From NCBI GenBank assembly GCA_963663405.2, contig CAXXSM010000096.1:1-57221 (forward strand): a stretch of DNA of 57,221 nt. Direction: 5' to 3'. Shown one piece after another: positions 2,377 through 30,373 of this stretch. Numbering within the stretch: the first letter of the stretch is position 1; every line of letters begins with the position of its first letter. Made by a program: the position numbers and the translations under genes. The notes under the pieces were generated by a model. The model saw only the letters and a program-made list of their open reading frames with translations, was not told the origin of the DNA and did no database searches. The stretch comes from a bacterium. GTDB taxonomy: Bacteria > Hinthialibacterota > Hinthialibacteria > Hinthialibacterales > Hinthialibacteraceae.

Positions 2377-3285
2377 TCAATACAACGCCCATTCCCCTAC
2401 ATCCGTCGCGATCCATACTCCATAATTCTCATCGATGAAATCAGAGAAAACCGCGGCGGAATCTTGATTGGCCGTGCGATTGGGATGAGAATCGCCGTCT
2501 TCACCGCCGTATTCAGCGCGCAGGCGGTTGGGATGATCGGGATCATCGCTTGGATACGCGAGGACATCAAACCAATCAAACACAGCGGCGTTATCCAAAC
2601 CGGGATTGGCCTCCAAGTATCCTGCAAGCCATTCGTTTTTCAACCAGTTATTATAGTCCCGCGCGCGTTGCGCTTCCGCGTCGTTAGTCTCATCCGAGGG
2701 ACCATAATTACGCGGTGGCGCAGTCACAGCGATAAATAAGATCTCAGGATGTTCGGCGAAAATTTGTTCCAACGGTTTATAGTCATAACCGTTTCTTGAA
2801 TATGTCCCCGCCGGATCATCATATTTTCGAAACACACTTTTGTAATTCGCCGTCGTTTGCGAGGAACTGAAAGGATCGCCCGGTTCTCTTCCCTCGCTGG
2901 AAATATTGCTGATCGGATAACAGCTTTTAAACATGATGATCGCGTTCCGCCCATCAGCGCAGTCAAAGCTTTCGATCCCCTCCAAATAATCATTAAACCA
3001 AAGAATCCAATGGTTCATATTCGTATTGTCTCCGGGAACTGAACCGAGAGATTCCGGCCTTCCCGAATCGGGAGAAAGAAAATCTCCATAATAAATATCG
3101 TTGACTTCATCAATAAACGACTTTCCTTGCAGCGTTGTGCGAAGCCCTTGTTGAAGAAAATTTTCGCCGCAGGAATGATGAATAAAAACGATATCGTCAT
3201 CCGGCGTCATCTCCTGCGCGCGGCTATTTATTGATAGAAACAACAGTAGGGCCATCAGAGTAAATATAAACGTATGTTTTTTCAT
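2377..3285 (-). CDS. Secreted hypothetical protein (SGNH-like fold suspected) with C-terminal W-x-L-Y motif
   Basis: Signal peptide ending SRA|Q; FIHHSCG, MFKSCYP and GDSHPN motifs; ends TDVGEWALY. Confidence 0.75.
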   Translation of the reverse strand: MKKHTFIFTLMALLLFLSINSRAQEMTPDDDIVFIHHSCGENFLQQGLRTTLQGKSFIDEVNDIYYGDFLSPDSGRPESLGSVPGDNTNMNHWILWFNDYLEGIESFDCADGRNAIIMFKSCYPISNISSEGREPGDPFSSSQTTANYKSVFRKYDDPAGTYSRNGYDYKPLEQIFAEHPEILFIAVTAPPRNYGPSDETNDAEAQRARDYNNWLKNEWLAGYLEANPGLDNAAVFDWFDVLAYPSDDPDHPNRLRAEYGGEDGDSHPNRTANQDSAAVFSDFIDENYGVWIATDVGEWALY

Positions 3286-3337
3286 GGATTCTATACCTCC
3301 ATTTGGTTGAATGACTGGAATTGCGTAAATCGATTGA

Positions 3338-4240
3338 TCAATTCGATTTCAGCGCTTTGGCTTTGTTCCACTGCGCGTAACTTTTCTCGATAAAAGAAGA
3401 GAAGACGTTGGCGGAATCCCTGTTGGCCGTTTGACTGGGATGGGAATCGCCGCTTTCACCGCCATTTTCAGCGCGAAGGCGGTTGGGATGACCGGGGTGA
3501 TCGCTGGGATAGGCGAGAACATCGAACCAATCAAATACCACAACATTATTGAATCCAGGATTGGCTTTATTGTATCCAGAAAGCCATTCGTTTTTCAACC
3601 AGTTATTATAATCACGAGCGCGTTGCGCCTCCGCGTTGTTTGTCCCATCGGATGGCCCGAAATGACGCGGTGGAGCGGTCACAGCGATGAATAGGATTCC
3701 CGGATGTTCGGCGAAAATTTGCTCCAACGGCTTATAGTCATACCCATTTTTTGAATACGTCCCCGCCGGATCTTCGTATTTGCGAAAAACACTCTTATAA
3801 TTTGCCGTCGTTTGCGAAGAACTGAACGGATCGCCCGGCATTTTTCCTTCGCTGGAGATATTGCTGATTGGATAACAGCTTTTAAACATAATGATCGCGT
3901 TCCGGCCATCAGCGCAATCGAATTTTTCGACTCCTTTTAAGTAATCATTAAACCAAAGAATCCAGTGGTTCATATTCGTGCTGTCACCGGGAACCGAACC
4001 GAGAGATTCCGGCCTTCCCGAATCGGGAGAAAGAGCATCCCCGTAATAAATATCATTGACTTCATTAATAAACGATTTCCCTTCCAGTGTGGAACGCAGC
4101 CCTTGTTCGAGAAAATTATTGCCACACGAATGATGGATAAAGACGATATCGTCCTCCGGCGACATTTTCTGCGCGTGTCCTTCCGTTGCGAGAAACAAAA
4201 CCATGGCCATCAAAGTGATGATAAACGTATGTTTTTTCAT
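3338..4240 (-). CDS. Tandem paralog of 2377..3285, lacking the C-terminal motif
   Basis: Start MKKHTF at 4240 after an AGGAGG RBS; long stretches identical to the neighbour; ends YAQWNKAKALKSN. Confidence 0.8.
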   Translation of the reverse strand: MKKHTFIITLMAMVLFLATEGHAQKMSPEDDIVFIHHSCGNNFLEQGLRSTLEGKSFINEVNDIYYGDALSPDSGRPESLGSVPGDSTNMNHWILWFNDYLKGVEKFDCADGRNAIIMFKSCYPISNISSEGKMPGDPFSSSQTTANYKSVFRKYEDPAGTYSKNGYDYKPLEQIFAEHPGILFIAVTAPPRHFGPSDGTNNAEAQRARDYNNWLKNEWLSGYNKANPGFNNVVVFDWFDVLAYPSDHPGHPNRLRAENGGESGDSHPSQTANRDSANVFSSFIEKSYAQWNKAKALKSN

Positions 4241-4389
4241 ATCCTCTCCTCCTAGTTGAATTTTCATTATGATATTGGTTTCAATAAATCGAATGGGCCG
4301 ATCAATCCGATTTTTAGCATTGTGCACAAAGACACTATATTACAAAAACATTAATATGTCATCGGCTTCTTCCTCAAATCACCTGTTCT

Positions 4390-5889
4390 TTATGCCCCAA
4401 GCGTCCCCCGGATAAAGATGGGATTGCTAAACGCCAGCAATTGATCCACCGGACGGCTATAGCGGTATACCTCAAAACGGTACCATTGGATCTCAGACCG
4501 CGCGTATTCGATGAACTTCAAATCACTGTCCCGCAGGGAAGAAAGTGGAGACTCACAATAAATCCCTTGATTCGACTTGATCCGGATAAAAGCCCCCGCT
4601 CCCACGCCATTAACTTGTACGCGCAGCTGGTACGGTTTCCCCACCGGCATACGCAATTCTCCCCCCATCAGCGCTACGCCGGAATTGGACTCCACCCAAA
4701 AACTAATCGCCGCTTCCAACGTCGCGTAACAACGCCCCTGTTTCAACGCGGGAATAATGAATGTTTCGGATACACCCTCTGATAGAACCAGCATTTTCGG
4801 CAGCCGGTCCACCAATGCGGCGCCCATCTCACCATGCGCCCCCTTCCCGCTGATCCCATAAATCCGCCGCTCCTGATTCAACAGCGAATCCCATAGATCG
4901 AACGTTTTCATAATCTCCGGAAACCGCTCTTCCCATAATCCACTCCAAACCTCCAGCAAATCGACGTGCGTCCAGTCCATCCTGTGCGAATTCCACAATG
5001 ACGGCGAACCGCTTGGTACCATGCTGAATGGATGCAACGCGCAGAACAATCCACCTTCAGAATGTGTCTGATAAATAATATCTGCTATCGCGAGTGGACG
5101 GGCGCCTTCAAACCAGCGAATATACTCGCGCGCGCCCAAGAGCAGCGCATGCCCAAAAAACGTCTCAATTTCCTGCCCGGAAAGAATCGAAAGCGGCGGC
5201 GATTCGGGCAGGGAATTCAACGGTGGAAGATCGTGATCCGAAATCGCTAGAAATTGATACCCGATCTCATGATACCGCCGCGCTGTCTCCGCAGGAGATA
5301 ACACGCCCACGCTCCGGCTTGTATGCTCGTGCAATTCTCCTAAATACCATTTGCATTCAGAAGGCTCCACATCCTCCGGTACACAGTCAAACATCAAATG
5401 GATTGGAAACGTTTCAATCTCCTCCGCCGTTTCAATCTGGATGGATAAAGCAGTTGGATTCGTATAGGCGGGGATCAGAACTTTCCACGCGCCCGAACCA
5501 ATGGAGCCCGGCAGGAATCCATCCAAGGCGTACCGCTCCCCAATCTCTTTCCACCCTTGAAACGAAGGATCCCACCGGCCTCGATACACGCCCTCCGCAT
5601 CAAAGATATACAACACGAACGAACGTGACTTCGCATATTGGAACATCGTGCCGATCGTATTCTTTAGAAACGCCTTCTGGACCTCCCCCACACTTGGATG
5701 ATCCGTGTATTGTTCAAACCATTCATTTTCTTCAATGGACTCAACCAACTCTCTCGGCGCCTGGATTTCGCAGAGAATCCGGACACGGCGAACATTCTCC
5801 CTCATTACAAATTCAAAAGAATAAAAACCCGGCAGATCCTCACCGCCAGTGAGTATCCTCTTTTCTAAAAGTGGCCGCCAGTTGGACAT
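4390..5889 (-). CDS. CehA/McbA-like PHP-domain metallohydrolase family protein with divergent metal ligands
   Basis: WYLGELHEHTSRS, AISDHD, GQEIETFFGHA, LHPF, EVWSG and AFSNPIF motifs; start placed at ATG 5889 with an AGGGA RBS. Confidence 0.75.
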   Translation of the reverse strand: MSNWRPLLEKRILTGGEDLPGFYSFEFVMRENVRRVRILCEIQAPRELVESIEENEWFEQYTDHPSVGEVQKAFLKNTIGTMFQYAKSRSFVLYIFDAEGVYRGRWDPSFQGWKEIGERYALDGFLPGSIGSGAWKVLIPAYTNPTALSIQIETAEEIETFPIHLMFDCVPEDVEPSECKWYLGELHEHTSRSVGVLSPAETARRYHEIGYQFLAISDHDLPPLNSLPESPPLSILSGQEIETFFGHALLLGAREYIRWFEGARPLAIADIIYQTHSEGGLFCALHPFSMVPSGSPSLWNSHRMDWTHVDLLEVWSGLWEERFPEIMKTFDLWDSLLNQERRIYGISGKGAHGEMGAALVDRLPKMLVLSEGVSETFIIPALKQGRCYATLEAAISFWVESNSGVALMGGELRMPVGKPYQLRVQVNGVGAGAFIRIKSNQGIYCESPLSSLRDSDLKFIEYARSEIQWYRFEVYRYSRPVDQLLAFSNPIFIRGTLGA

Positions 5890-6166
5890 TGAATCCCTAA
5901 ATAAATACAAATTTTTACTACAATCACAGAAGGAAGAAAGAAACACCATACCATATTTCCACCCTGAATTTTAGTCGTAACACTACCAAAATAGACCAAG
6001 AAATATCATATTTTCATAGATATAACATAATATATTACAAACTATAAATTAAATATTATATGTAATTAAATTAATATATTTTACTATTATTTCTTTCGAT
6101 AATTTGGTATAGTGAATGACGCTCTAACATCTTGGAAGAAGTATTCGCATCGAAAGGAGACGTATC

Positions 6167-7153
6167 ATGCGTAAAATTGGAATGTGGTTCGCTATCGGAA
6201 CTGTGGGCGCGCTCTGCTTTTCGCCAATCGGCGCAACGCAGACGGAGGATGAGTTGCTGGCAGTGGAACAAGAATTTAACGACGCCGTGAACGCTCATGA
6301 TGTTGACAAAATCATGACGTATTTCACGGATGATTCTGTCTACGACTTTGTCCCACAACCACCAGCGATGAATGGAAAAGAAGAAATCACCGCTTTCATT
6401 GAGGGACTCTTCGCAGGGATGCCCGATTTTAACATTGTCGAAAGACACAATCATGTGGCGGGCAATATTCTCGTTAGAGAGGCAGTCCTCCAAGCGACGC
6501 ATTTAGGCGTTTTATCGGGGATCCCTCCCACAGGAAACAGTCTGCAAATTTTACCCTTTCACATTTTTGAGTTTGAAGGGACTCAGGTAAAAAAGTCGAC
6601 TGAATATTTAGATATGCAAAGTCTATTAATCCAGATGGGCGTGATGCCGGCGGCCGAATTACCACCTTTGGAACCTTCATTCACTCTTCCCGATCCTGAA
6701 CCTTCCGGAATATCCTATTTTGAAACAGCGATTGAAAGTGATTCGCGTTGGAATTCCGGAGATTTAAATTCATTTATAAAACTATACCCAGCTGACGCTG
6801 ATTTTCTAATTGCGCCGCTCGGAATTCCATTGGATCGAAGCGCCTATGTCGCGGCGCAGGAAATATATTCAACCGCATTTCCTAACAGAATAATGGAAAC
6901 AGTTCGCAGGATTGATTGCGGTGATGGTTGGGTGGTTACTGAAGTGATTTTCAAAGGAACACATGATGGCCCTTATTTCGGGATTCCTGCAACAGGCCAA
7001 CCATTCGCAGTCAGAGGTGTGAATATCGTGCAAGCGAATGATGATGGATTTGTCACGTATTTACATACTTACTATGATGGGATCACATTGTTAGCTCAAT
7101 TAGGTTTAATGCCAACATCTTCATCTTCAGAAGCATGGGAATTATACAAATAA
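6167..7153 (+). CDS. Secreted protein with two SnoaL-like/ester cyclase domains and C-terminal W-x-L-Y motif
   Basis: Signal peptide; two repeats of FPD/FPN...THxGxxxGIPxTG; ends SSSSEAWELYK; AAGGAG RBS. Confidence 0.85.
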   Translation: MRKIGMWFAIGTVGALCFSPIGATQTEDELLAVEQEFNDAVNAHDVDKIMTYFTDDSVYDFVPQPPAMNGKEEITAFIEGLFAGMPDFNIVERHNHVAGNILVREAVLQATHLGVLSGIPPTGNSLQILPFHIFEFEGTQVKKSTEYLDMQSLLIQMGVMPAAELPPLEPSFTLPDPEPSGISYFETAIESDSRWNSGDLNSFIKLYPADADFLIAPLGIPLDRSAYVAAQEIYSTAFPNRIMETVRRIDCGDGWVVTEVIFKGTHDGPYFGIPATGQPFAVRGVNIVQANDDGFVTYLHTYYDGITLLAQLGLMPTSSSSEAWELYK

Positions 7154-7273
7154 TTTTAACCTCTACATTCATCCCACATTTCCTGCCGATCAATCTCTTC
7201 CGATCCCACAATCCTTAACTAGAATGCTAACATACATCACATCATACTATTCCCTTTCATTAAGCGAGCGCCT

Positions 7274-8755
7274 ATGAATTTTTGGGATCAAATCGCAGCG
7301 GAGAAACATCTATTGGATTACCCTCATTCCCCACATGGGCCGGTGGGGATGATCTATCCAAACGCATACTCGATTGGTATGGCGAGTTTAGGGTACCAGC
7401 AGGTTTACCGGCTGTTCCGGGAAGCGGGCATGGCGGTCGAGCGTTTCTTCTTTGACAAAAAAGGCCGTGAAACGCGCGGTGTGGAAAACCGGTCGCCACT
7501 ATTCCGAATTCCCATTCTGGCCGCTTCCTTCACGTACGAATTGGATTTAATCAATCTATTGAAAATGCTCCTGCGAGGCGGCGTGGAGATCTTATCCGAA
7601 CAACGGGGGGAAGAATTCCCCCTGCTTATCATCGGTGGGCAGGCGGCGTCCAACAATCCACGGCTTCTTGAACGTATCGCCGACGCCGTGGTTCTCGGAG
7701 AAGCCGAGGGTATCATCCCTCCCCTGACCGAAGCCCTCATTCAAACCAAAAACCAATCTCGGCGCGAAAAGTTAGAAACGATCGCGCAAATTCCCCATAT
7801 CTATGTCCCCCTCGTTCATGGAGAATCCGGCGCGGAACGGATACAGCCTTTCAGAATGGACCTATGCAATGCCCCTTCGTGCAACAGCGCAATACTCGCA
7901 AAAAATGACGAATTCGGTGGCGCTCTATTATTGGAATTATCCCGTGGCTGCTCTCATCGATGTAACTTCTGTGTTGTTCATTACCGCAACGGCCCGGCGC
8001 GGTATCGTGAGTATGGATCACTGATCGAGACACTTGAACGGCACAAGGATTCATATCACAAAGTGGGGCTTCTTGGAGCTGCGGTGGCTGGTCATCCTCA
8101 AGTAGAAGAAATCGCTGAATGGATTGTAAAACAAGGAAAACAAGTTTCGATCTCCTCGTTGCGGGTAGAAAAACTCTCCGGGAGCCTGCTCGATTCACTC
8201 CACCGGGGAGGGATGCAAACCCTCACGATCGCCCCCGAAACCGGATCGTTTGAGAGCCGGAAACGATTGCGTAAAGGCATTCAAGATGAGCGGTTCTTTG
8301 AACTGGCGGAACAAGCGGGCAAGCGCGGGTTTCCCAATCTCAAACTCTATTTCCTGATCGGCTGCCCCGAATCCGATCCGATGCGTGAAGCCGAAGAGAT
8401 CGCGCAATTTTCTGAACGAATTAACGAAATTTTTACAAAAAACGGGGGGCGCCGCCTCACCGCAGCCATCTCTCCCTTCGTTCCGAAACCGTATACCCCT
8501 TGGGCCGACGAACCATTCTGGAATCCGAAACAAGTCAAAAAAGCCTCCCGGCTGATCCGGAAATTATTGACATTCCGCGGCAACATTAAAACACCGCCCG
8601 TGAATGTAAAAGAAGCCCGCGCAGAAACCGTTCTCAGCTGGGCAGGTTCCGAAATCACAGAAGAATTGATCCAAATCGCAAGTGGAGACAATCCCCCCGA
8701 ATCCGCATTTATGGATTACGATCTCTCGCGCCTGCAAAGAGACAGCGCCTCTTAA
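7274..8755 (+). CDS. Radical SAM protein with N-terminal B12-binding-like domain
   Basis: YPNAYSIGMASLG N-terminal motif; SRGCSHRCNFC CxxxCxxC; APETG; FVPKPYTP. Confidence 0.85.
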   Translation: MNFWDQIAAEKHLLDYPHSPHGPVGMIYPNAYSIGMASLGYQQVYRLFREAGMAVERFFFDKKGRETRGVENRSPLFRIPILAASFTYELDLINLLKMLLRGGVEILSEQRGEEFPLLIIGGQAASNNPRLLERIADAVVLGEAEGIIPPLTEALIQTKNQSRREKLETIAQIPHIYVPLVHGESGAERIQPFRMDLCNAPSCNSAILAKNDEFGGALLLELSRGCSHRCNFCVVHYRNGPARYREYGSLIETLERHKDSYHKVGLLGAAVAGHPQVEEIAEWIVKQGKQVSISSLRVEKLSGSLLDSLHRGGMQTLTIAPETGSFESRKRLRKGIQDERFFELAEQAGKRGFPNLKLYFLIGCPESDPMREAEEIAQFSERINEIFTKNGGRRLTAAISPFVPKPYTPWADEPFWNPKQVKKASRLIRKLLTFRGNIKTPPVNVKEARAETVLSWAGSEITEELIQIASGDNPPESAFMDYDLSRLQRDSAS

Positions 8756-10916
8756 CGTTTATTCTTATACGCCACAACGCGATCCCAAACAATCTGCGGA
8801 ACAATCCCATGCGCCGCGTCGGTGCAATCACAAATCCAGTTGCTGGGATCAATGGTCTTTCGCCGCTTCTCCATCCGCTTCAGCCGTTTCTCTCCCAACC
8901 GGCTTCGCTCTTTGGCAAGATCGATTTTCGATGAAACCATTTTGCCTTTATTAAACGCATCCGGGTCGAGTAGATCGATCCGCCGTTTGCGCAATCGTAA
9001 ATGCAGCAGATCACCGGTTTGTAAATAGAGAATCCCCCCCTTCCGGAAGGCTTCCGGCGTAACATGTCCCACCGCCGCCCCATAGCTGACGCCGGAATAA
9101 CGCCCATCGCTGATGAGCGTCGTGAATTTCTTCAACACCTGATTGTGATTGATGTGAATCATGGGCGTGAACATCTCCGGCATCCCAAACGCCTCCGGCC
9201 CCTGACCCGCGATGATGACCGCAATCCGTAGAACCTCGTCATCAATCAATCGTTGAAAGAGCGCTTTCTTCGATTTCAATCGTTCAACCGAAGCGTCCCG
9301 TCCACCGCTGTTATGATGGTGAATTTGAATGAACGCCTCTCTGGACAGACGCGTTTTCGCATAGATGGAATCGAGGAGATTCACATTTAATAAATTGGCC
9401 GTCGCCTCTTCCTCATTTTCAAAGTAGACAACTACGGCGGCTTTTTCATCAAACTGATCCAGCTGTTCATCCGGCATCCCGCTGATTTTCACAATGGCGG
9501 TTTCGAAGAAGTTGCCGGTTAACACATCAATCCCACTAATGGCCCGCCGGGGTTTCGACAACGCAATTGGATTCTCTTTCACATTATCAGCGGATACGCG
9601 CTTCTTATTCCGAATCCGCTTCTTCCACGTGAATCCAGCCATCGTCGGCGCGTTTTCAGCGATCGGGATCTTGTTACACCGGAGTTCGTAGAGAATCGTT
9701 CCTATTCCATCAATCCTTCCATCGCAGCATTGCTTCGCGTATTCAAAGATATCACGGCCTTCGGTCAAACTGTAATCAAAAAGATCGGGAACAGGAACTT
9801 GACGGCGGATACGATCGTAGTGTTTCAAGTCGAATCGATACCCAGCATAGATCACCGCCGAAATAAGATGCAGGATCAAGTTTGACGATCCCCCCATCGC
9901 GCTATGGACCCGGACCGCGTTTTCGATATTCTTCACAACAAGGCTTGATACACTATAGTCCGGATCGTTGCAGACGGCGAACAGGGCTTTCACCGCCTCA
10001 TCCACCTGTTCAAACGTAGGCGGTTCAATGAGAAACTCCAATTGAGGATGAACCAGTCCCAAAGCGGAAACAATATGACGGCAGCTGTTCCCCGTGCCGT
10101 TGAACGCGCAGACGCCTCCCTTTGGATGACACGTGTTCACAGCAAGGCGTTTCTCATAATCCTTCTGTTGTTCTATAGTGATCACGCCAGTTTGAACGGC
10201 GCGAGTAAAGACGCCTAGAAACGCCTGGTTGGATGAGCATTGCAAAATATGCCGCAGCGTTAAACGCAGATCGTGCGCGATTGCGCCTTCTCCTTTTACC
10301 TCACAGCGATCCGCCATTTCGAGCAGTTCCGCACGCAGATCATCGGGGATCGTACCACCACGCAGCACATGCGCCGGAGCGAAGGTTGCGAAGACCGGCG
10401 CTTCATCCCGCGCCCGGCGGGTCACATCGAGTGAGGCCAAAGCATTTAACAATGCCGAACGGTGTTTTGTCACATCCTTGAATCACAAACGCGCCATGAT
10501 ACGAATGGCTCTCCATCTGGTTGACCACCGCCGCCGCAGCAAGGCCGCGCGACGCCAGGGAGTAGCACATGCCTTGATTGCTCTGCGCGGTTCCATCACA
10601 CATCACAGGAATACCAAACACAAAAGGAACGCCGCCCCGGTTCCAAATCGCCGCCGCCGCTTTCAACAATGTTTCATGATCCATTACATGCGCGGGATGA
10701 TCGGGCGAGCCGGTAATCACCGCCACAACACGCGGGGCGTTCGCTTCCAGCCGGTCATAGATCTCATTCAAATCAGCGTCATTGGATAGCCCCGCCATCC
10801 GCGCCCGTTCCAACACCATCGCCACACAAATCGGCTCATTCGCCTTTCCCTGCACTTCCCGCGAATAAGGATTCGGTTCCCCGTTCAATTTTTAACTGCT
10901 TCTTTCGTAAACGCAT
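8752..10916 (-). CDS. Dihydroxy-acid dehydratase (IlvD/Edd) family protein, split by two apparent homopolymer frameshifts
   Basis: CDGTAQ..GMCYSL.SR, GCDKT, GGVCAFNGTGNS, MGGSSN, GPEAFGMPEM and SDGRYSG...GHVTPEA motifs; an extra A near 10890 and near 10447 breaks the frame; GGGGAG RBS before ATG 10916. Confidence 0.85.
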
Positions 10917-10977
10917 CGATCTCCCCTAAATTATATATACTCCCCTAGTATAAAACCATAAACTATTGCATGGGTGG

Positions 10978-11005
10978 CAAGGGCAAGGTTTTTCATCTGC
11001 CCTTG
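10978..11005. repeat. REP-like intergenic hairpin
   Basis: CAAGGGCA-N12-TGCCCTTG inverted repeat preceded by GGGTGG. Confidence 0.45.
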
Positions 11006-11134
11006 TATAATTCTAAACCATATTTGAATAGAGCGATAACCGGTATTCCTCTTTTTTCCTTTGAACATAGGGGATAGAGATTGTTTATGAGAGTTTAGAA
11101 AAAGAACTCACTTTCCAGGAGAACAATAAACCAT

Positions 11135-13146
11135 CTAATACATTTCCCAATCAACAACAACATCAGCGCCTGGAATCAATTTCCACTCCCTGAAAACGCG
11201 CGATTGAATAACTATCCGTATTAGAGGACAGAGCCAAGCCCACAAAGACGGGATCTTCCAATGATAGAGTGAATGTATGCGACAAAATCCGATCCCCCGT
11301 TTCCGCGCTGATCGTATAGGCCATAAAGGTATTTCCAGACCGCACAAGTTCTAAATCCCCCTCTTGGTCTGAATTCAAATCTCTCGATGTGCTCGCCGAA
11401 TCCGCGCCTTTGCTTACTCGCCATGAGGTGTATTGCTGCCGGTCGGTGCGGATCAAATTACTATAATGAGCCGAATCAGCGCTCAGTTCATCCCGGATCA
11501 TCAAACCGGTCTTAATCCAAGTCACATCACCGTTATGCGGTTCCAAATCGACATGCGCTTTAAATCTAAAATCACCGCTGTATTGTTTGAACGCGAAATG
11601 GAATCCATCGGCGGTTTCCCAAATTTTCCTTGATCCTCCCACTCGCCGTGATTGTGTATTCCTCCGTCTCTGGATCGAAGAGTGTAATCCCATCGATTGC
11701 GTTAAAACCGATGTCTACGTAACCATCGAATAGACCGGTTGCGGCGCCTAACAGTCATTCAGCGATTTATCTCCCGCCAAAGCGAATCCATCCACCTCTC
11801 CTTCAAACGAAACAGAGCCTCCATCACTCGTTCCCGCCGTAGCGGTATACTGAAGAAAAATTGACGAGTTCGCCTGCGCCGGTACGCTCCATTGAATCAC
11901 ACCCTCACTCTCGATTCCGCTATCGCTGATCTCACTCGCCGCCCATCCTTTGGGAAGTGTTTCCGATACAGTGGCGGTCATCTCGTCCAAACTGGGATTT
12001 TGGATCTCGATCCCCCCCCCCCCCCCCCGTCACTTGAAACGAATCCCCTTCTTGATAGTACGTCCGCGCGCCAAAATGATCCGGCCCCGCGATCACGCGC
12101 GTTCCGACAAGGTTCTGTGATAACGCAACATCGCGGAACGTGGCGATTGAATACCCATCCGTATTCGATGAGAGCGCCAATCCCACATAGACAGGATCTT
12201 CTAAATCGAGTGTAAATGTATTGGCTAAAACGCGCTCGCCGGTTTGCAGGCTTGTATAGTACGCTTCGATGGTTTTATCCCTCCGGACCAGTTCCAATTC
12301 TCCTTCCCAATCAGGATTCATCTTGCCGGAAGTGCTATCGGAGGAACCACTGTCCCATTCCCGCCAAGTCGTATATTGCTGTTTATCCGTGCGTATGAAA
12401 TTACTGAAATGTTTGGAATCGGCTGCGAGATGATCGCGGATCATCAATCCGGTTTTCACCCATTGCGCGTCCCCATCCAATGGATCAAGTTCTATACGGG
12501 CTTTGAAACTGAACGCCCCACTCAATTCTGTAAAGAGGAAATGAAAACCGTCAGCCCGGTCCCAGATATTGCTGCCCGTTGCGGTTAACTCATATTCCCC
12601 CGTGTTGGGATCATACGTCACATAGCCCGGCTGCGGTGTGTCTCCAATATCCTTATGCGCGTCAAAAATCCCCATCGCGGCGCCAACGAATTCAAATTGG
12701 CCGATCCCCACAGGAACCAATTCAAAACCATTGACCGTTCCGCTGAAAGTAATACGGCTCTCTGAATCGCTGGGCGCGGTCAACGTATACTGCACAATTT
12801 TCACACCCGGATTGATAGAGAATTCCCACCGAATGGCACCCTCTGACTCCACTCCTTCATCACTGATATCACTCACTGCCCATCCTATAGGCAGAATTTC
12901 TTCCAACTCCGCCGTCAGAGCGCTGGACGTTGTATTATTCAATTCAATTTCGACGAACAATTGATCGCCCGCCCGGAAAAAATTTTCTACGCCCAAGGCG
13001 CCTGGTCCAGTGACAGCGCGCGTTCCTTCAATCGCCTGCTCCGCGTTTAAATCCATCTCTGATTTCGAAATTTCAAACGCATATACAGAAACGATTCCTA
13101 TAAACTGAAAAGCAAGAGTCCAGACGGCCAACCGGCGTGTATTCAT
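11135..13146 (-). CDS. Secreted protein with a duplicated two-domain unit (Ig-like plus concanavalin/DUF1349-like beta-sandwich) and C-terminal W-x-M-Y motif; four apparent frameshifts
   Basis: ORFs 11932..13200, 11748..11990, 11163..11693 and 11135..11347 join into two homologous halves (E.LP.GWA.S.ISD.G.ESEG.I.W and IW..ADGFHF...KTGLMIRD); reconstructed end GVELIPGADVVVDWEMY; AGGAG RBS before ATG 13146. Confidence 0.8.
12012..12028. repeat. C17 homopolymer (G-run on the coding strand) inside the secreted protein gene
   Basis: Directly visible run of 17 C; it shifts the reading frame. Confidence 0.95.
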
Positions 13147-13342
13147 AACATACACTCCTATGTACAGTGTTCTTTTAATTAATGTATACGATCCATTCAA
13201 TTTTACATGAATTTAGTGAGATCTGTTCCAAAAAAAGCAGATTTTGTCCACATGAATCCTTATAGTACTATAATATTATTTCATCAATAAAAATGCATTG
13301 ATATTAAATTCAAATTATAGACATTTTGAAAGGCAATGACCC

Positions 13343-15208: not shown

Positions 15209-15227
15209 TAGTCACAATTCTTTTTGA

Positions 15228-18110: not shown

Positions 18111-18136
18111 AACTTGTACGAATGATGGATTGAGTA

Positions 18137-19396: not shown

Positions 19397-19786
19397 GATC
19401 CTTCCTTTCTAAGTGAGAAGCGCCCCATTGCCAAGATAAATCTTGTCCTTTTGGGGCATTCTGGCGCAAGCGCAACGGATGGTTTCTGGAAGGGAAACGG
19501 TATCCACTTACCTATTCCACATTAAATTATCTATATTCTACTTCATTTTTTAACAAATTTGCAAGAGAAAAATGGAAATGTCCGTTTTTTTTACCTTTCA
19601 TATTAAAGAAAGATTAGTGGAATTAATTATTTAAATTCAACAATATCATTGTTGCTAAAGGGTAGATCTGGAAAAGTGATCCTATAACTAGAGAATGTGA
19701 TTTCTTTTCCAAACGCGACTTCGGAGTTGGATATTTTCCCGGAACATTTATAGTACATGGTATCTTATTTCGAAATTGTTACCTCA

Positions 19787-21153
19787 ATGGAAGAACAAAG
19801 AACTAAACAAGCAGCGGCGAATCAAAAACACGCGTCGGCCGTCATCGTCGGACGTCCGAATGTGGGAAAATCAACCCTATTCAATCGGATCATCGGCAAA
19901 CGGGACGCGATTGTCGACGACCAGCCCGGCGTCACCCGTGACAGCAAGTTCAAACAGGCGGAATGGCGGGGTAAAGGATTCTGGCTGGTCGACACCGGCG
20001 GCTTCTTCGGTCCGGACGACGATCCGCTTTCTCCCGCCGTCCAGGAACAGATCGAACGAACCGCCCGTACCGCGTCTGTGTTAATTATGATCCTAGACGC
20101 GCAGACCGGCCCCACACCACTCGACAGCGATGTGCTCGATCTGCTGCGCCGCTTCCATATCCCCATTGTCGCCGCCGTCAACAAGGTGGATAATCCAGCG
20201 GCGGAATGGGAATTGATTGCGCCCTTTTATGAACTTGGATTCAGCGAGATTTTTCCCATCTCCGCGATGCACGGCACGGGCACAGGCGACATGCTGGACG
20301 CGGTCGTAGAATACCTGCCCGATGACGCCCCCTTCGAGCCGGAACCGATCCCTGGAATCGCCATCATCGGCCGACCCAATGTGGGAAAATCAACTCTGCT
20401 GAATGGCTTGTGCGGAACCGACCGCTCGATAGTCTCCCCCATCGCAGGCACAACCCGCGATCCCGTCGATACAGAAATTGAAGTCAACGGGAAACGGTAT
20501 CTTCTGATCGACACCGCCGGAATTCGCCGCCGTGGGAAAATGAGCCAGGGATTGGACCGCTACAGCCTCTTGCGAGCTAAAAAAGCGCTGGACCGCTGCG
20601 ATCTCGCGTTAATGTTGATCAACGCGGAAGAAGGGCTGACCGAAAGTGACGCCGTGTATTCGGCCTCGCCAAAGACGCGGGGAAAGCGGCGATCATTCTC
20701 GTCAATAAATGGGATCTGGTTGAAAAAGATCAGGACAGCGCCGGGACCTTCGCGAAGAATGTCCGTGACGAGGTTCCCTTTCTCCATTACGCGCCGATCG
20801 AGTTCATCTCCGCTTTGACAAAAAAGCGGATTCACCGGATTTTTCCCCACGTGGAAGAGATTCTGGACAATTATTATTTCCGGGTCCCCACAGCGGAATT
20901 GAACACGCTTCTGGAAGGGATTCTGCAAAGGCATCCACCACCCGTCCATCGAGGACAGGCGCCAAGGATCTACTACTGGACTCAGGTCTCCGCCGGGCCT
21001 CCCACATTCATCGCGTTCGTCAGCGACCCGAAGGCTATCCATTTTTCTTACCAGCGTTATCTGATCAACCGGCTGTATGAAACGTTTGAATTTAAGGGAA
21101 CGCCGTTGCGTCTTTTCTTAAAACAGCGGGGAAAAGAGAAACGAAATGACTGA
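19787..21153 (+). CDS. der: Ribosome biogenesis GTPase Der/EngA (one apparent frameshift near 20652)
   Basis: Two GRPNVGKSTL P-loops, DTGG/DTAG, VNKVD; adding one C restores VNKWD and the KH-like C-terminus ending FKGTPLRL. Confidence 0.92.
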
Positions 21154-22519: not shown

Positions 22520-22523
22520 CTCG

Positions 22524-23246
22524 GTGTTTGAAAGTGACGCGATGGTGAACGTCATTTCCACTCTCTATGGAATCGCGCTGATTCTCGAACTGTTCGCCCT
22601 CCTTCTCGTTGGACGCCTGATTTACAATTCGACGAAACGATTCCGCCGCCATCCCGTCACGAAAGATCGTCTGCGGGCTGGGATGTTTACGCGCGATATC
22701 CTGATGGGAATGAGTTCGCTGATCATTTTTGTTTTCGGGTTGGCGGTGCTCAACTTTGCGATGTTTTTACAGTGTTATCGCGTATTCGCGATGGGGGAAC
22801 CGGTCGCCCGCGTCATTATCACTCCCAGTGACGCTAAAAACGAATTCTCCGTGCAGATCCAGGAACTCGGCCAACCACTCTCCAAGCATGTATCCCCCGA
22901 TTTCCGCGATTATTTCATTAAAGGCGACAAATGGACTGTCGAAGGCAACATCATCCGCTTTCACCCCGCGTTGAATTTATTAGGATTCCGCCCCGTCTAT
23001 GAACTGACGCGAATTCAAGGCGGTTATTTTTCTATTGATGATGAACTTAAAAAAGAACGGACGGTTTATTCCATGGTCGATCGCACATCAGAGAATTGGT
23101 GGGAGTGGATGTACAAAAGCGCCGAGACGATGCCCTTTGTAGATCTAGTCTACGGCTCAGCGGTGTCAAACCGGGGAGATGAAAGCAGCCAGTATATCAT
23201 CACCGTAAGCCCATCCGGCCTATCACTTGAGAAAGTTGACAAATAA
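22524..23246 (+). CDS. Uncharacterised membrane protein (two N-terminal TM helices plus soluble domain)
   Basis: Hydrophobic segments followed by GDKW...YELTRIQG.Y...YGSA; co-oriented with hisA. Confidence 0.65.
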   Translation: MFESDAMVNVISTLYGIALILELFALLLVGRLIYNSTKRFRRHPVTKDRLRAGMFTRDILMGMSSLIIFVFGLAVLNFAMFLQCYRVFAMGEPVARVIITPSDAKNEFSVQIQELGQPLSKHVSPDFRDYFIKGDKWTVEGNIIRFHPALNLLGFRPVYELTRIQGGYFSIDDELKKERTVYSMVDRTSENWWEWMYKSAETMPFVDLVYGSAVSNRGDESSQYIITVSPSGLSLEKVDK

Positions 23247-23298
23247 ATACAGGAGGCGCGGCGAACCACAGCCCCCTGTTCGTTTTTCTTCCTATTTC

Positions 23299-25044: not shown

Positions 25045-25155
25045 CTTCCTTTCTAACGTGAATCTAAAAACGTTTCGAGTTAATGCTATCCTATCGCAAC
25101 CCTCCCAACGGTTATAGCCCGAAAGGACCTTATAAAAGACGGTTCATTTAGTCAT

Positions 25156-26433
25156 TCAACGCAGCGCCCGCAATGTATCCTCAAAACGATCTAAAAAAGC
25201 ATCGCAAATCGATTCATCGTGAGCGATCGACAAATAAAGTTTTGTACCCATAGGATTCAAGAAGATTCCACGCTCGAAGAGTCCCAGCGACACACGGCGC
25301 GCGAAGGCGCTGTCTTGATGCTGCGCGCTTCGATAATCCCGAACGGTCCGATCCGTGAAAATCGATTGCGCCAAGGGGCCATCGCCGATGATTGAACCCG
25401 TGATTCCCAGGTCGTTCAACACGGTCTTCATCCCCGATCGAAGATACCGGCCAAGTTCATGCAATCTCTTATACACACCTTCTTGCGATAAGATAGACAG
25501 CGCCGCGCGCGCCGCTGCGGTGGATACAGGATTCCCCCCTAACGTTGACGCGCTCCACACGTATGTGTCAACATGCATTCGGTCTTCACACACAATCCGC
25601 ATGATCTCCCGTCGCCCCCCATACACTCCAATAGGATACCCGCCCCCAAGCGCTTTCCCATACGCGATCAAATCCGGCGTGACGCCATAGTACGTTTGCG
25701 CGCCACCGTAGGCCAAACGGAATCCGGTGACGACTTCATCAAACAGCAAAAGAATTTCGTGTTTCTGTGTGAGATCGCGCAAACCTTGTAAAAATCCCGG
25801 TTCCGGCGATGTGCAACGCTGCAGAGGCTCGACAATCACACCCGCGAGTTCGTCTTTATTTTGTTCGACAATACGCGTCACCGCTTCCAGGTCATTAAAT
25901 GGAGCGATCAAAACGTTCTTCGTCTGCTCTGGATCGCCGCCGGAACAGGTTGGATCGGCGTGAGGATAGTTAGGAGCCGAAATAGGAAATAAACTCGCGG
26001 CGCCGAGATCATGCGCGCCATGATAGGCGCCTTCAAACTTCATTATCTTCGACCGGCGCCGGTATGCGCGAGCGAGCCGGACGCAATACAACGTCGCTTC
26101 CGTGCCAGACGCGCAAAAGCGCATTTGTTCGCACGCTGGACTCAGGCGGATCAGTTCTTCCGCCAATAAAAGCGCGTTTTCATTCACAAAAGCGAAATTG
26201 GACCCAAGTTCACATTGCCGCTTCACCGCGTCAACAACTTGAGGATGGGCGTGCCCAACCAACACCGATCCCCAGCCCATCGAAAAATCCCAAAAACACC
26301 GGCCATGAATATCCCACAATTCACAGCCGTTCCCCTTTTGGATAGCTGTGACGAATTCAGAAGGAAGATTAAATTCCCCATTGGACGAACCTGCGGGAAA
26401 ACAGGTCAAAATACGTTGTTGATCTGTACTCAA
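25156..26433 (-). CDS. Class III PLP aminotransferase, glutamate-1-semialdehyde aminomutase-like
   Basis: SGTEAT, KFEGAYHG, FDEVVTGFR and GKALGGGYPIG motifs; substrate uncertain. Confidence 0.85.
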   Translation of the reverse strand: MSTDQQRILTCFPAGSSNGEFNLPSEFVTAIQKGNGCELWDIHGRCFWDFSMGWGSVLVGHAHPQVVDAVKRQCELGSNFAFVNENALLLAEELIRLSPACEQMRFCASGTEATLYCVRLARAYRRRSKIMKFEGAYHGAHDLGAASLFPISAPNYPHADPTCSGGDPEQTKNVLIAPFNDLEAVTRIVEQNKDELAGVIVEPLQRCTSPEPGFLQGLRDLTQKHEILLLFDEVVTGFRLAYGGAQTYYGVTPDLIAYGKALGGGYPIGVYGGRREIMRIVCEDRMHVDTYVWSASTLGGNPVSTAAARAALSILSQEGVYKRLHELGRYLRSGMKTVLNDLGITGSIIGDGPLAQSIFTDRTVRDYRSAQHQDSAFARRVSLGLFERGIFLNPMGTKLYLSIAHDESICDAFLDRFEDTLRALR

Positions 26434-26453
26434 TCGTTTATCCTTATATCGCG

Positions 26454-27686
26454 TTATTGCACGAGCAAACCGTCAATCCGTTCCGCCAGCGCCACTCCCA
26501 TCCGCCGGTGCCCCTCCGCCGTGTAATGGCATTCATCAACAAATTCCTCACGGAACACGGCTTCCGCCTCAATCGGATCGGTCACGTCTCCCACAATCGC
26601 CGCCCGTCCATCGATCACCGGGATCGAATGCGCCTTCGCCACATCATAGAAAATCATAAAGTAACTTCGCTCACTGCGCAGCACCGATTCCCCAAACAAC
26701 GAACCGGTCGCCCGGTGTTCGGCGAACGCATCCCTGGCTTTTTTCTCGTTCCCGATTTTCTGATAACTCAATCCCAAATAATAACGGCTTTCCGTATACG
26801 ACCGGTTGGGAATCGTGTTGAACGCTTCTTGAATCGTTTCAATGGCTTCCTCTGGATCTCCTTCGTCGTAATACCGGGCGGCCTGCTCCACAAGCCCAAA
26901 CGCGCTGGGATCTTGATAGACCAGCAGGAACACCAATTGAATATCATTGTCCTGACAGATTGAAACCGCTCGCAACAGTTCCTCCCGGAAGGTGTTTTCA
27001 GGCACGCGAGGAAACACCTCATCCAAGGGCGGGGAATTTTCCTTAATTTTCTTGATCTTGCGTTCCCCGATTTCACACAACATGCCAAAGAACATATTGC
27101 TCCACGACAAAACACCCACGAAGCTTCGCAGCCGGGCGATGATGGCAAACGAGCGGGAGGAATCCGGCGCGCGGGTGATAATATAACGCCGGTCGTTATA
27201 TCCCGGCGCGAACACAACCGTATCCGGTTTATATTTCAGCATGCGTTCCAGCTGCGCCCGGCACTGAACCGCCGAGAATCCATGCGTCCCCGCGTTGATG
27301 ACCTCTACATCGCGCCCGCGTTCCCGCAGTTCCTTCTGCAACACGGCGGAATAGGTTTCTTCATTTTCAACGCCGAAGCCATAGGTGCGCGAATCGCCCA
27401 GTGTAACGATGCGAAAATCAGTGGTTTTCCGCACACCGCAATCACGGGGTGTGCGGAATCCGCTTGAACCGGTTTGAATTTTCTCCCCAAACGCCTCACC
27501 CGTATAACCCGTCTTCAAACGCCACAACGTCCGCGTATCCCACCGGAACGCCCGGAAATCCGAATCCCGCTGCGCCGCGTACTTCGCCCCCATCCGGATT
27601 TCCAAACCGATATAACAAAGCAACAAAATCATATAAGCCAACCGCTTTTTCTCTTTCGCGGTCTTCGGGAAAAACGCCATAATCAA
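26454..27686 (-). CDS. Membrane-anchored SGNH/GDSL hydrolase with TPR insertion
   Basis: N-terminal TM; LGDSRTYG, INAG, GYND and DECH blocks; YYLGLSYQKIG TPR-like helix pair. Confidence 0.85.
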   Translation of the reverse strand: MIMAFFPKTAKEKKRLAYMILLLCYIGLEIRMGAKYAAQRDSDFRAFRWDTRTLWRLKTGYTGEAFGEKIQTGSSGFRTPRDCGVRKTTDFRIVTLGDSRTYGFGVENEETYSAVLQKELRERGRDVEVINAGTHGFSAVQCRAQLERMLKYKPDTVVFAPGYNDRRYIITRAPDSSRSFAIIARLRSFVGVLSWSNMFFGMLCEIGERKIKKIKENSPPLDEVFPRVPENTFREELLRAVSICQDNDIQLVFLLVYQDPSAFGLVEQAARYYDEGDPEEAIETIQEAFNTIPNRSYTESRYYLGLSYQKIGNEKKARDAFAEHRATGSLFGESVLRSERSYFMIFYDVAKAHSIPVIDGRAAIVGDVTDPIEAEAVFREEFVDECHYTAEGHRRMGVALAERIDGLLVQ

Positions 27687-27755
27687 TCAATCCAAAAAAT
27701 ATAGTATGAATACATAGGAAATAGATTAGTGGGGGAAGAAGCGGTGGTACAGGGT
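27610..27755. repeat. Direct repeat copy 1 (upstream region and first ~25 codons of the SGNH gene)
   Basis: ATATAAC...GGTACAGGGT, nearly identical to 30647..30791. Confidence 0.95.
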
Positions 27756-27838
27756 TCAGTGGAAAAGCAACGCAAGAGACCGCAATTAAAAAATCCAATA
27801 ACTCAATCGAGGTATTAAAATATATCCAATAATACACG

Positions 27839-30373
27839 CTAATAAAAAATCCAATCTCTCACGGGAACGCATTTTTCGCATTGATATGGATCTATATTCT
27901 TTTGAGGGGAATATGCGATACCTTTGAGCAAGTCAGCTTGAATATCCCATTCCGCTGTGCCCAGTTGTTCACAAAGTATCCCGACATCTTCACAATCAAA
28001 TTCATCCAGGCGATTGTACCGGATGTCCACTGCATCTCCAACTTCAAAAATTTCCAACAAGCCCATTTCACCTAGATCGGTTAGTTCATTGCCGGAACAA
28101 TTCAAATTACTGAGATAATATATACTGTTTAAATCTAACGAGGTCAGCTGATTCCAACTGCAATTGATATGAGTTAGGAAATAAAAACATTCTCTCTGTA
28201 GATCAAGTTGTGTAAGTTGATTATAAGAGCAATCTAGAGATTGCAACCAATTATCGCAAACCCACATATTACTATCATCATCAGGTATCGTGAGTTTTGT
28301 CAGCTGATTATGCGAACAATCAATCTCGTAGAGATAAATGTTGAGGAATACATCCAATTGTGTAAGTTTGTTATCAGAACAATCTAGGACGCGTAAATTC
28401 TTGTTTTGCGATAAATTTAGGGCAGACAATTCATTGGAAGAGCAGTCTAAAGTTTCAAGCGATTTATTGGAAGAAAGACTTAAATTACTCAAATGATTGT
28501 TCGAGATACGCAATTTTTCAATGACTGAGTTGAATGATACATTCAAATCAGTCAACGCATTCGAACTGCAATCAAGCAGAATTAGTTCAGTGTTTTTTGA
28601 CACATCCAAATGGCTCAACGCATTGATTGAACAATCTAAATTCTGCAACAATGGATTATGGGAAACGTCCAAAATAGAGATCTCATTTGTTGCGCAATTG
28701 AGATCTTCTAGAGAGATGTTTTTTGACACATCCAAGTGACTCAGCGCATTGGCTGAACAATCCAAAATCTGTAATAATGAATTTTGGGAAACGTCCAAAA
28801 CAGCAATCTCATTTGTGTCGCAATATATCTGGCTGAGGGTGGGATTATGCGTAACATCTAGATGTTTTATACTATTGACAGCACAGTTTAATCCCAAAAT
28901 CATGGATTGATTAGATAGGTTAAGATCGGTGATTTCGTTTACAGCGCAATTAAGCACAAGGATAGAGGGATTGTTAGATATATCAATGCTTGGCAGTATA
29001 TTTCGGCTACAGTCAAGGATTTCGAGTTTGGAATTATGAGAAATATCCAGTTCTGAGATTAGATTAGAGCGAAATTGCAGGTTGTTTAGTTCTTTATTCT
29101 GAGAAACGTTTAATGACGTTAATCTATTGAACGAACAATCGAGTTTACTTAAATCGGGGTTCTGAGAAATATCTAAATGCGTCAATTCATTATTGGGACA
29201 AGATAGTTCTTCCAAAACTGGATTTTGGGTAACATTGAGTTCGGTCAATTGATTATTTTCACACCAAATTTCCATAAGTTTTTCGTTTTTCGATACATCC
29301 AATTCTAACAATGGATTGCTTTCGCAATAGAGTATCTCCAAAAAGAGATTCTTCGAGACATCCAAGTGGGTAATCTCATTTTTTGAACATGCGATCCTTG
29401 ACAAACTAGTGTTTTGAGAAATATCCAATTCGGTAAGCCGATTGTTGGAACAATCAAGCGTATCAAGGACGGTATTGTTCGATAATTCTAGGTCCGTAAG
29501 GCGATTGCTAGAGCAATTCAAACCCATTAAAACTGTATTATTTGAAATATCCAAGCGTTCGAGCCTGTTGTTTGAACAGTTGAGACTCCACAAATTCGTT
29601 AAATACTCGATGCCGGTCAGATCACTAATTCTTTTTCCCGAACAATCTATATAAAAAAATATTTTGCTCGCTGCTTCTTCGGCAGTGAAAGAACCGCCGG
29701 ATGAAACTTGCATTAATCCCTCAACAAATGTGCGAAATACAGGATCGGGAAAGTTTTCCGGGGTGTTTATATTACCTGGTGACTCTTTTACTTTGTCGGT
29801 CCGCACATACTCCAAAGCGGTAATCGTATTACCTGAACTTTCAACAAGAATCCCCACAACATTGTAATCTTTGTTAAAGCAAGACACGGATTCGCTGATG
29901 AAATTGGGGCAGATGTCTGTTATAGAATGGTCAGTGTCGATTACGTGGGTTTTGCTAGTATCTAAGTTCGTAAAGTTGATACTACTGAGGTAATTTCCGT
30001 CCTCGTCACAAATATTCGAGGTTTTGAACCATCCAACACGAATCACGCCCCGATCATTAAATTGATCCACGATTCGAAAGACCGCTTCCCAAGTATCTCC
30101 CCACTGAAAATCGTTTTCTTTTTGCACCATGAGAATGTGAGATCTCTGCGATCCAACAGGCAAACCCAAGATGGTTGCCTGTAGTCCAAATCTTTCGCAA
30201 CGGCCATCAGCATCAATATCGACAACTGAACCATTACCACTTTTATACACTTTCCAACAGAGTGTACGGTCAGCTGGATCAAATGATCCATTGCAAATTG
30301 CAAAGGAAAAATTGGCTAGTAGTGAAATAAAGATAAGAACGATAAAACTAAAGTAAAATAAAGTCACTTTCAT
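27839..30373 (-). CDS. Secreted leucine-rich repeat protein (21-aa bacterial LRRs) with C-terminal W-x-F-Y motif
   Basis: Signal peptide ending SFA; FPDPVFR cap; more than 20 LxxLDVSxNxxLxxLxCxxN repeats; ends CVPVRDWIFY. Confidence 0.92.
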   Translation of the reverse strand: MKVTLFYFSFIVLIFISLLANFSFAICNGSFDPADRTLCWKVYKSGNGSVVDIDADGRCERFGLQATILGLPVGSQRSHILMVQKENDFQWGDTWEAVFRIVDQFNDRGVIRVGWFKTSNICDEDGNYLSSINFTNLDTSKTHVIDTDHSITDICPNFISESVSCFNKDYNVVGILVESSGNTITALEYVRTDKVKESPGNINTPENFPDPVFRTFVEGLMQVSSGGSFTAEEAASKIFFYIDCSGKRISDLTGIEYLTNLWSLNCSNNRLERLDISNNTVLMGLNCSSNRLTDLELSNNTVLDTLDCSNNRLTELDISQNTSLSRIACSKNEITHLDVSKNLFLEILYCESNPLLELDVSKNEKLMEIWCENNQLTELNVTQNPVLEELSCPNNELTHLDISQNPDLSKLDCSFNRLTSLNVSQNKELNNLQFRSNLISELDISHNSKLEILDCSRNILPSIDISNNPSILVLNCAVNEITDLNLSNQSMILGLNCAVNSIKHLDVTHNPTLSQIYCDTNEIAVLDVSQNSLLQILDCSANALSHLDVSKNISLEDLNCATNEISILDVSHNPLLQNLDCSINALSHLDVSKNTELILLDCSSNALTDLNVSFNSVIEKLRISNNHLSNLSLSSNKSLETLDCSSNELSALNLSQNKNLRVLDCSDNKLTQLDVFLNIYLYEIDCSHNQLTKLTIPDDDSNMWVCDNWLQSLDCSYNQLTQLDLQRECFYFLTHINCSWNQLTSLDLNSIYYLSNLNCSGNELTDLGEMGLLEIFEVGDAVDIRYNRLDEFDCEDVGILCEQLGTAEWDIQADLLKGIAYSPQKNIDPYQCEKCVPVRDWIFY

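Follow-up and report, generated by a model that had tools for sequence, protein, structure and literature searches.

The PilC/PilY1 adhesins of type IVa pili end in ~10 residues that fill out the sheet of the minor pilin PilK in trans, a strand addition that PMC13533445 describes as licensing filament assembly and holding the adhesin on the tip; by the same account, the GspK subunit of type II secretion systems (T2SS) provides its own last strand. For the PilC2 protein of Kingella (1,502 residues), residues W1498 and I1501 are reported as critical (PMC13711793). Type IVb pili offer a second precedent in TcpF and CofJ, where a minor pilin binds a linear signal for export (PMC10120004). Substrate recognition by T2SS and type IV pili is characterized in that account as poorly understood, and a PNAS paper, in its treatment of T2SS substrates, reports that strand addition is not required for them. 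Here we analyzed a 57,221-nucleotide stretch of DNA from a bacterium of the phylum Hinthialibacterota (assembly GCA_963663405.2, contig CAXXSM010000096.1, positions 1 to 57,221 of the forward strand; hereafter the window), for which an original prediction had proposed that four unrelated secreted proteins share a short C-terminal tail, W-x-[LMF]-Y, acting as a lineage-specific secretion or surface-anchoring signal.

We report that this tail is a genuine, apparently undescribed sorting tag. Its probable role is that of a plug-in address by which many different proteins are loaded onto a single export machine resembling a pilus. What is new here is a candidate reader for the tail, located outside the window: a giant GspK/PilK-like minor pilin without its last strand (hereafter giant K). 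Strand donors known so far are dedicated adhesins, one or two in number, whereas the tail stands on about 3% of the proteome and is paired here with a candidate strand-less acceptor. The tail and its proposed acceptor offer a binding reaction that can be tested with peptides and possibly a portable signal for export or display, and for this uncultured phylum of polysaccharide degraders the tail would allow the outer-surface proteome to be predicted from sequence.

A C-terminal tail shared by unrelated secreted proteins

Three of the four proteins singled out in the window are intact open reading frames (ORFs) whose tails read as had been described. A secreted 302-aa protein of no known family (2377..3285, minus strand) ends T-D-V-G-E-W-A-L-Y (2380..2406, stop 2377-2379); a secreted double SnoaL-like protein (PF07366; 6167..7153, plus strand) ends S-S-S-E-A-W-E-L-Y-K (7121..7150, stop 7151-7153); and a secreted 844-aa leucine-rich-repeat (LRR) protein (PF12799; 27839..30373, minus strand) ends V-P-V-R-D-W-I-F-Y (27842..27868, stop 27839-27841). 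Their scores against a position weight matrix (PWM) for the tail were 21.2, 16.8, and 14.9, respectively. The fourth end, D-V-V-V-D-W-E-M-Y (11138..11164, minus strand, stop 11135-11137), does not belong to a single ORF: it lies in the last frame of a secreted gene broken by frameshifts (11135..13146, minus strand), so that the near-identity of four protein ends stands for three and depends on reconstruction for the fourth. That the tag marks a subset of proteins held within the window, where it was found on 3 of the 48 ORFs of at least 100 aa and on no others of the 48.

We extended the analysis to the genome containing the window (G000), an assembly of 8.44 Mb that is 82% complete and yielded 6,780 ORFs. 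ORFs and signal peptides were called with custom heuristics, not with an established gene caller or predictor; the PWM was trained iteratively on real C-termini, and the null sets were not used in training. Tryptophan stood at position -4 in 275 of the 6,780 ORFs, compared with ~106 expected. The PWM was positive for 207 ORFs; the null sets gave 3 hits among 5,909 shadow ORFs and 7 among 30,935 internal cuts placed at random. The predicted W-x-hydrophobic-Y ending is therefore real, and it proved longer than had been noted, spanning nine positions from -5 to +3 around the W with the consensus [TSV]-x-[VIA]-x-[DN]-W-x-[LIV]-[YFH], about one residue or less from the stop. The W occupies position -4 in 159 of the 207 carriers and -5 in 43; position +1 is mostly E, S, M, or A, position +2 is L, I, or V, and position +3 is Y, F, or H in 187 carriers. 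Sixteen further hits have F or Y in place of W; a 151-aa protein among them (C145:7796) was dropped as likely noise, and the 15 kept bring the total to 222. Three large secreted paralogues (C83:29734-35265, C92:20664-26012, and C148:2751-7424) end L-T-W-x-x-x-W-x-x-M, under the tag threshold.

The properties of the carriers agree with the earlier description on each point compared. Their bodies are unrelated, with the 207 carriers falling into 100 sequence clusters, 72 of them single proteins. A heuristic signal peptide was found on 164 of 218 carriers compared with 1,676 of 6,439 other ORFs, and a regular-expression search for the tail, the check that had been suggested, matched 88 of 1,847 ORFs with such a peptide vs 31 of 4,933 without; 17 of the 54 carriers that lack one abut a same-strand ORF upstream. 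One carrier (C53:75756-77210) has a twin-arginine-like leader by eye, and a lipobox-like match occurs in three. The tag has neither a transmembrane helix nor a basic tail, as the chain ends 2-6 residues past the W, and internal membrane helices are present in 4 of 203 carriers vs 903 of 6,454 others. Lysine content is 2.2% in carriers compared with 4.7% in untagged secreted proteins. Carriers include proteins with SnoaL, LRR, laminin G, and CBM9-like domains, some up to 3,288 aa long. Those that could be annotated have soluble folds and are not beta-barrels, and the three barrel-like ORFs picked up by a crude screen are all untagged; the BamA beta-signal, in contrast, needs as its carrier an outer-membrane beta-barrel that ends in an aromatic residue. 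None of 16 terminal 30-mers matched a Pfam or NCBIfam sorting family at E ≤10, and an ESM Atlas search with a 24-residue tail gave no usable match. No published description of the tail was found in the literature searched, a search that left subscription papers largely outside.

Across genomes, we searched DNA for the pattern V/I-x-D/N-W-x-L/I/M-Y/H-stop, using the reversed pattern as control. Matches were obtained in 34 of 35 genomes of Hinthialibacterota (OLB16), with 3-50 matches each compared with 0-5 for the reversed pattern. The exception, genome G001, has a variant tail, V/I-x-x-W-R-L/V-Y/F, with R at +1. Each of the 35 genomes sampled from the phylum thus has the tail, one of them as a variant, and G001 was rejected as a tag-free control for this reason. 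A relaxed pattern was at noise level in two genomes (42 vs 33 matches in G027; 32 vs 29 in G029). Among 50 genomes reached via homologues of the 2377..3285 protein, 48 had 0-5 matches and two bacterial records had 26 and 27; the pattern was absent from one Hydrogenedentota and one Anaerolineales genome. A record named SURF_12 had 22 matches, and PMC9324843 places SURF_12 in OLB16, that is, Hinthialibacterota. A sequence piece related to giant K is labelled Ca. Hinthialibacter sp. The tail is accordingly phylum-wide and at background elsewhere. The results of every test run fit the proposal that some of the exported proteins bear a signal for sorting or anchoring that is specific to this lineage.

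Exchange of the tail with known sorting modules

The domain of the 2377..3285 protein is spread over many phyla and carries varying sorting modules at one junction. Scored by regular expression at this junction, the 120 best homologues comprise 10 with the W tail, 20 with a Chloroflexi-type xLPL tail, 8 with a PEP-CTERM-like end, 7 with a C-terminal domain (CTD) of the type IX secretion system (T9SS)/FlgD type, 4 with a dockerin-like end, 1 with an IPTL-like end, and 70 with none of the scored end types. Named loci of homologues repeat this swap by phylum. Since the tail replaces known sorting modules at the same junction, it is itself a swappable sorting module.

Each of these modules differs from the tail. 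The T9SS type A CTD (TIGR04183, PF18962) and the FlgD CTD (PF13860) occupy the same junction in homologues, including those of Zixibacteria, and the T9SS CTD resembles the tail in tagging hundreds of unrelated exported proteins. It is a folded domain of roughly 70-80 aa that requires SprA and PorV, whereas the tail has nine residues and the T9SS core was not found. None of the 16 terminal 30-mers matched PF18962, TIGR04183, or PF13860 at E ≤10. SprA and PorV were above cut-off in 0 of 5 genomes each, in a search in which the SprA positive control gave no hit and the genome of the window is 82% complete. The T9SS was rejected as reader: the single SprA hit was a repeat protein, and the PorV-like hits were small barrels that also occur in G001.

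PEP-CTERM, IPTL-CTERM (TIGR04174), GlyGly-CTERM, and MYXO-CTERM are likewise short and C-terminal, and each marks many exported proteins that are otherwise unrelated. These tripartite signals are described as a motif, a membrane helix, and a basic cluster that are cut by an intramembrane protease, and two of them as dependent on the T2SS for the last step (10.1101/2023.06.07.544157). In contrast, the tail has no membrane helix and no basic cluster. A PEP-type regular expression had no match in the genome of the window, and TIGR04174 was above cut-off in 0 of 35 genomes. The IPTL signature does resemble the tail in a single homologue aligned by eye (P0022).

The terminal x-L-P-L/V tail of Chloroflexi is also short, membrane-free, and placed at the same junction, but differs in a consensus without W. 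Several cases lie in Anaerolineae records, and Chloroflexi homologues (L051, L059, L067, L070, P0080, P0095, P0104, and P0113) end like Y-L-P-L-V/I-x-R. This ending is possibly another undescribed sorting tag; no description of it was found in the literature searched.

A strand-less minor pilin as candidate reader

Because PilC/PilY1 acts by adding a strand to PilK, a K subunit without its last strand was predicted for this phylum and sought. An H-I-J-K minor-pilin cassette with a giant K was found outside the window (G000:C143:47821-58257, minus strand). Its genes give weak NCBIfam hits, in gene order, to GspH, PilV/GspI, GspJ, and GspK, and to Verru_Chthon D, B, C, and A; the cassette is phylum-wide and distantly similar to the Verru_Chthon cassette. 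Every one of the 35 phylum genomes yielded giant K (33 and 2 in separate searches), and each of the 26 genomes of the order had a single strong match. Intact copies are ~2,130-2,320 aa long in most members of the order and ~1,770-1,820 aa in the family designated f6. The subunit encoded in the C143 cassette (~2,200 aa) is rich in acidic D-x-D-x-D-G repeats and has a lamin-tail-like domain.

All 35 C-termini of giant K stop past the second-last strand, typically at Q-R-K-L-E-T-V-Y-Q-R, whereas ordinary GspK paralogues continue D-R-G-x-x-x-P-x-I-R-Y-W-K-V-x-R, that is, with a short loop and their own last strand (P-E-I-R-Y-W-K-V-I-R). Measured from a shared 'xxS' anchor, the C-terminus lies at 28-30 residues in 26 of 29 giant K rows and at 36-39 in three rows with longer loops, whereas of the 17 ordinary GspK rows that were scored, 15 have a distance of 39 residues; hhalign aligned the anchor regions of both groups at 97.9% over 26 columns. 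Genome G001 keeps a strand-less giant K alongside its variant tail, x-x-W-R-[LV]-[YF].

Like T2SS GspK (NF037980, PF03934; PDB 3ci0), giant K has a pilin N-terminus without Glu5, a helix-hairpin-helix region, and two strands before the end. It differs in lacking the last strand, which GspK has as its own, and is 4-5 times the length of the GspK paralogues. The copy from genome G003 scored 28 bits against NF037980, where the cut-off is 130. Judged by these sequence features, giant K resembles PilK in its predicted working and is not a GspK equivalog. A Foldseek search with a model of its C-terminal part (mean pLDDT 63) gave no match at E ≤0.001, and a search of solved structures with an ordinary GspK returned helix-hairpin-helix proteins only. 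Outside the phylum, weak K-family hits were obtained in 12 of 48 genomes, and most of these hits do have the last strand in cis. Large GspK-like proteins without the strand also form a second group, ~880-1,110 aa in length (P0140, P0141, P0167, P0177, and similar).

The hydrophobic positions of the tail follow those of the strand missing from giant K. At positions -3, 0, +2, and +3, the hydrophobic fraction is 0.86, 1.0, 0.95, and 0.78 in the tail and 1.0, 1.0, 0.78, and 1.0 in the GspK strand, and one GspK (L144) ends Q-I-I-D-W-K-V-I-R. The pattern [VIA]xxWx followed by two hydrophobic residues, which was chosen post hoc, matches 9 of 11 GspK ends and 169 of 222 tails, compared with 547 of 36,927 internal W sites.

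Similar correspondences link the tail to the PilC/PilY1 strand. W1498 and I1501 of PilC2 and the tail share a W and W+3 register near the extreme C-terminus, and the C-terminal β-strand (Cβ) of PilC/PilY1 and MshQ, which is added to PilK/PilX in type IVa pilus tips, is like the tail in its length of ~10 residues, in its conserved W with a hydrophobic residue at W+3, and in standing on a carrier with a signal peptide. For PilC/PilY1 the partner is of PilK type, lacks its last strand, and stands in H-I-J-K order, as does the candidate partner in this phylum. The partner predicted here differs in being ~2,000 aa long with T2SS-type helix-hairpin-helix repeats. A genome has only one or two PilC/PilY1 proteins, which are dedicated β-propeller adhesins, whereas ~220 unrelated proteins carry the tail. 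These carriers, with their 100 clusters and SnoaL, LRR, laminin G, and CBM9-like domains, are not members of the PilC/PilY1 family; the β-propeller family PF05567 was found in 0 of 5 genomes, in a search in which no positive control gave a hit. TcpF/CofJ are alike in that a short linear peptide is read by a minor pilin at the tip and a periplasmic protein crosses the outer membrane, but their signal is N-terminal and cleaved on export, each system has one substrate, and the TcpB tip is homotrimeric.

Proposed mechanism and competing explanations

We place about even weight on a reading in which the tip complex of a type IV filament takes up the tail as a donor β-strand, with the cargo riding or capping that filament. 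A tagged protein would be exported by Sec (by Tat in at least one case) and fold in the periplasm. It would then insert its tail into giant K, completing the pilin sheet; I-J would recognize the completed giant K, the filament would grow, and the cargo would be carried through the secretin. Thereafter it would be either released or displayed as an exchangeable tip on a retractile filament, given that PilT motors are present. The gene downstream of giant K (gene 5) may encode a default cap for the same slot. A stronger version, in which ~200 folded proteins each complete the initiation complex and the filament is built only with cargo loaded, is put forward tentatively, and we hold it somewhat doubtful. 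Under that version, the tail would serve as a linear signal, short and transferable, that directs proteins to T2SS-like export or to display on an exchangeable tip, and further strand-less PilK proteins could read other short tails without a membrane helix. Among envelope components, BamA was present, PilT was above cut-off, and 6-9 secretin matches were obtained in each of five genomes tested.

A number of findings weigh against the donor-strand reading. One tip corresponds to one protein per assembly round, and deep burial of a strand suits retention better than bulk secretion. The likeness between the tail and the GspK strand is modest: ranked against 9-mers around internal W residues, it reaches about the 90th and 80th percentiles, and with the trained PWM for the tail the ten W-type GspK ends scored at percentiles of 20-93; PilC/PilY1 has the consensus W-R-E-hydrophobic, whereas the tail reads V-x-D/N-W-x-L-Y, without R-E. 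The C-terminal model of giant K aligned with GspK 3ci0_K at Z 4.6 (rmsd 2.4, 61 aligned residues) amid unrelated rows, and giant K is split by a frameshift in both G000 and G001. Co-occurrence of giant K and tail counts about once, because both share one phylum and ancestry. Outside the phylum, genome G063 has a strand-less K, and a single secreted protein with the end I-K-V-F-E-R-E comes after it; in 245 ORFs sampled from 375 kb of this genome, W was not enriched at -4/-5. This is a strand-less K with a likely dedicated donor. The locus (L277:1-9951, G063:C126) consists of the giant strand-less K, a 983-aa secreted protein with a PilC-like end and no Pfam match, and then pilM-like genes.

Gene 5 itself (G000:C143:46431-47750; L161:4435-5751) adds to these objections. 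It encodes a conserved secreted protein of no Pfam family, occupies the pilY1/mshQ position after giant K, and is full-length in 27 of 35 genomes, with a weak syntenic hit in G027. Its end, T-N-L-Y-F-K/R-E-R-L-x, makes it the sole ORF in G000 with a PilC-like end, [LIVR][YFS][WF][RK]E; this end ranks at the 91st percentile against the GspK strand and at the 6th-11th percentile against the tail. In a structural model, the C-terminus (residues 424-439, low confidence) is free. Gene 5 is likely a stand-in for MshQ/PilY1 and could by itself explain a strand-less giant K. Two β-domains and a P/T linker make up its layout, together with a C-terminal strand that is free.

Gene 5 alone might serve giant K, with the tail read by some other pilin or secretin part (~95 pilin-like paralogues, an ordinary T2SS cluster, a secretin) or by another channel, an explanation that we consider rather unlikely. 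Gene 5 would provide a ready dedicated donor, and the genome has candidates for the reader: three more T2SS-type clusters with ordinary GspK, one Tad cluster, one PilM-Q-like cluster, 110 pilin-like ORFs, and other secretin loci. TcpF/CofJ, as described in PMC10120004, show a minor pilin binding a linear signal. Tagged genes also lie directly beside same-strand members of a 95-member pilin-like family in 12 of 222 cases vs 4.4 expected (p ~0.002), about 2.5 times the expected rate, but the other 210 have no directly adjacent same-strand gene of this kind; the neighbour enrichment seen over all families comes mostly from duplicated loci. A separate reader would also leave the match between the tail and the missing strand at -3, 0, +2, and +3 to be accounted for. 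Moreover, gene 5 was not found in any of the seven f6 genomes, all of which retain strand-less giant K and tails. A DNA pattern for gene-5-like ends gave counts equal to control in five f6 genomes and carries no weight either way.

The remaining explanations dispense with a pilin altogether. That the tail is a dockerin-like label docking exported proteins to a surface scaffold or S-layer we judge improbable. The genome does have 11 cohesin matches, none of its 15 dockerin-regex proteins is tagged, and the tail replaces dockerin-like modules in 4 of the 120 homologues. It equally replaces routing signals, however, since seven of the 120 homologues have T9SS/FlgD CTDs there and eight have PEP-CTERM-like ends; inspection of the 45 largest ORFs by eye revealed no scaffold with many repeats of a receptor domain, and the strict distance to the stop fits a buried terminal strand. 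A protease or transpeptidase site, either an IPTL-CTERM-like signature minus its helix or the remnant of a T9SS CTD linker, is very improbable. It draws on homologue P0022, which at the same junction ends I-P-A-V-S-E-W-G-V-V followed by a membrane helix and basic residues, near the V-S-D-W-x-L of the tail, yet the tail itself has neither helix nor basic cluster, TIGR04174 found nothing above cut-off in the 35 genomes, and the SprA and PorV models stayed below theirs in five of five. PDZ ligands often end in aromatic residues, as does the tail, which could suggest a periplasmic quality-control or retention mark read, for instance, by a PDZ protease. We regard this as scarcely probable: the carriers are lysine-poor, include LRR, laminin G, and CBM9-like proteins and very long chains, and have homologues bearing outer-surface sorting modules.

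Other genes of the window and additional loci

The 2377..3285 gene has a tandem paralogue (3338..4327, minus strand) with 82-83% identity and no tail, forming a natural tagged/untagged pair. The domain encoded by 2377-4327 is secreted and has 442 homologues, with no Pfam or NCBIfam match; it has invariant H-H-S-x-G, K-S-C, and S-H-P motifs and is probably a hydrolase. A search for related loci with the 6167..7153 protein returned none.

The broken gene at 11135..13146 has a weak DUF1349 match and contains a 17-G run. Its codons 1-404 lie in one frame and a 183-codon piece in a second, and A-D-V-V-V-D-W-E-M-Y closes a 71-codon stretch in a third. This tail is real DNA, joined to its protein only by reconstruction. 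Assembly indels are plausible here because other genes of the assembly are split likewise. In the window, housekeeping-type genes split into two overlapping frames occur at 8752-10888, 19757-21153, 32104-35006, 49099-50263, 51103-52981, and 53589-56187, a pattern that points to assembly indel errors; we take these genes to include the Der GTPase and a ribonucleotide reductase.

Several loci elsewhere in the genome concern secretins and scaffold-type domains. Secretin genes at G000:C18:25076-35127 and C38:18629-27827 stand beside chaperone-like and fimbrial-subunit-like genes, not T2SS genes, and one of these two loci also has an FG-GAP/VWA protein. At G000:C125:18409-22661, the gene for a 1,020-aa secreted protein with cohesin and dockerin immediately precedes that for a small outer-membrane barrel, which matches the PorV family weakly. 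Within the window, a pilin-like gene (PF07963; 448..1089, plus strand) belongs to the 95-member family described above and is given as context, not as a part shown to belong to the system; its family has at least 31 matches in each genome of the phylum.

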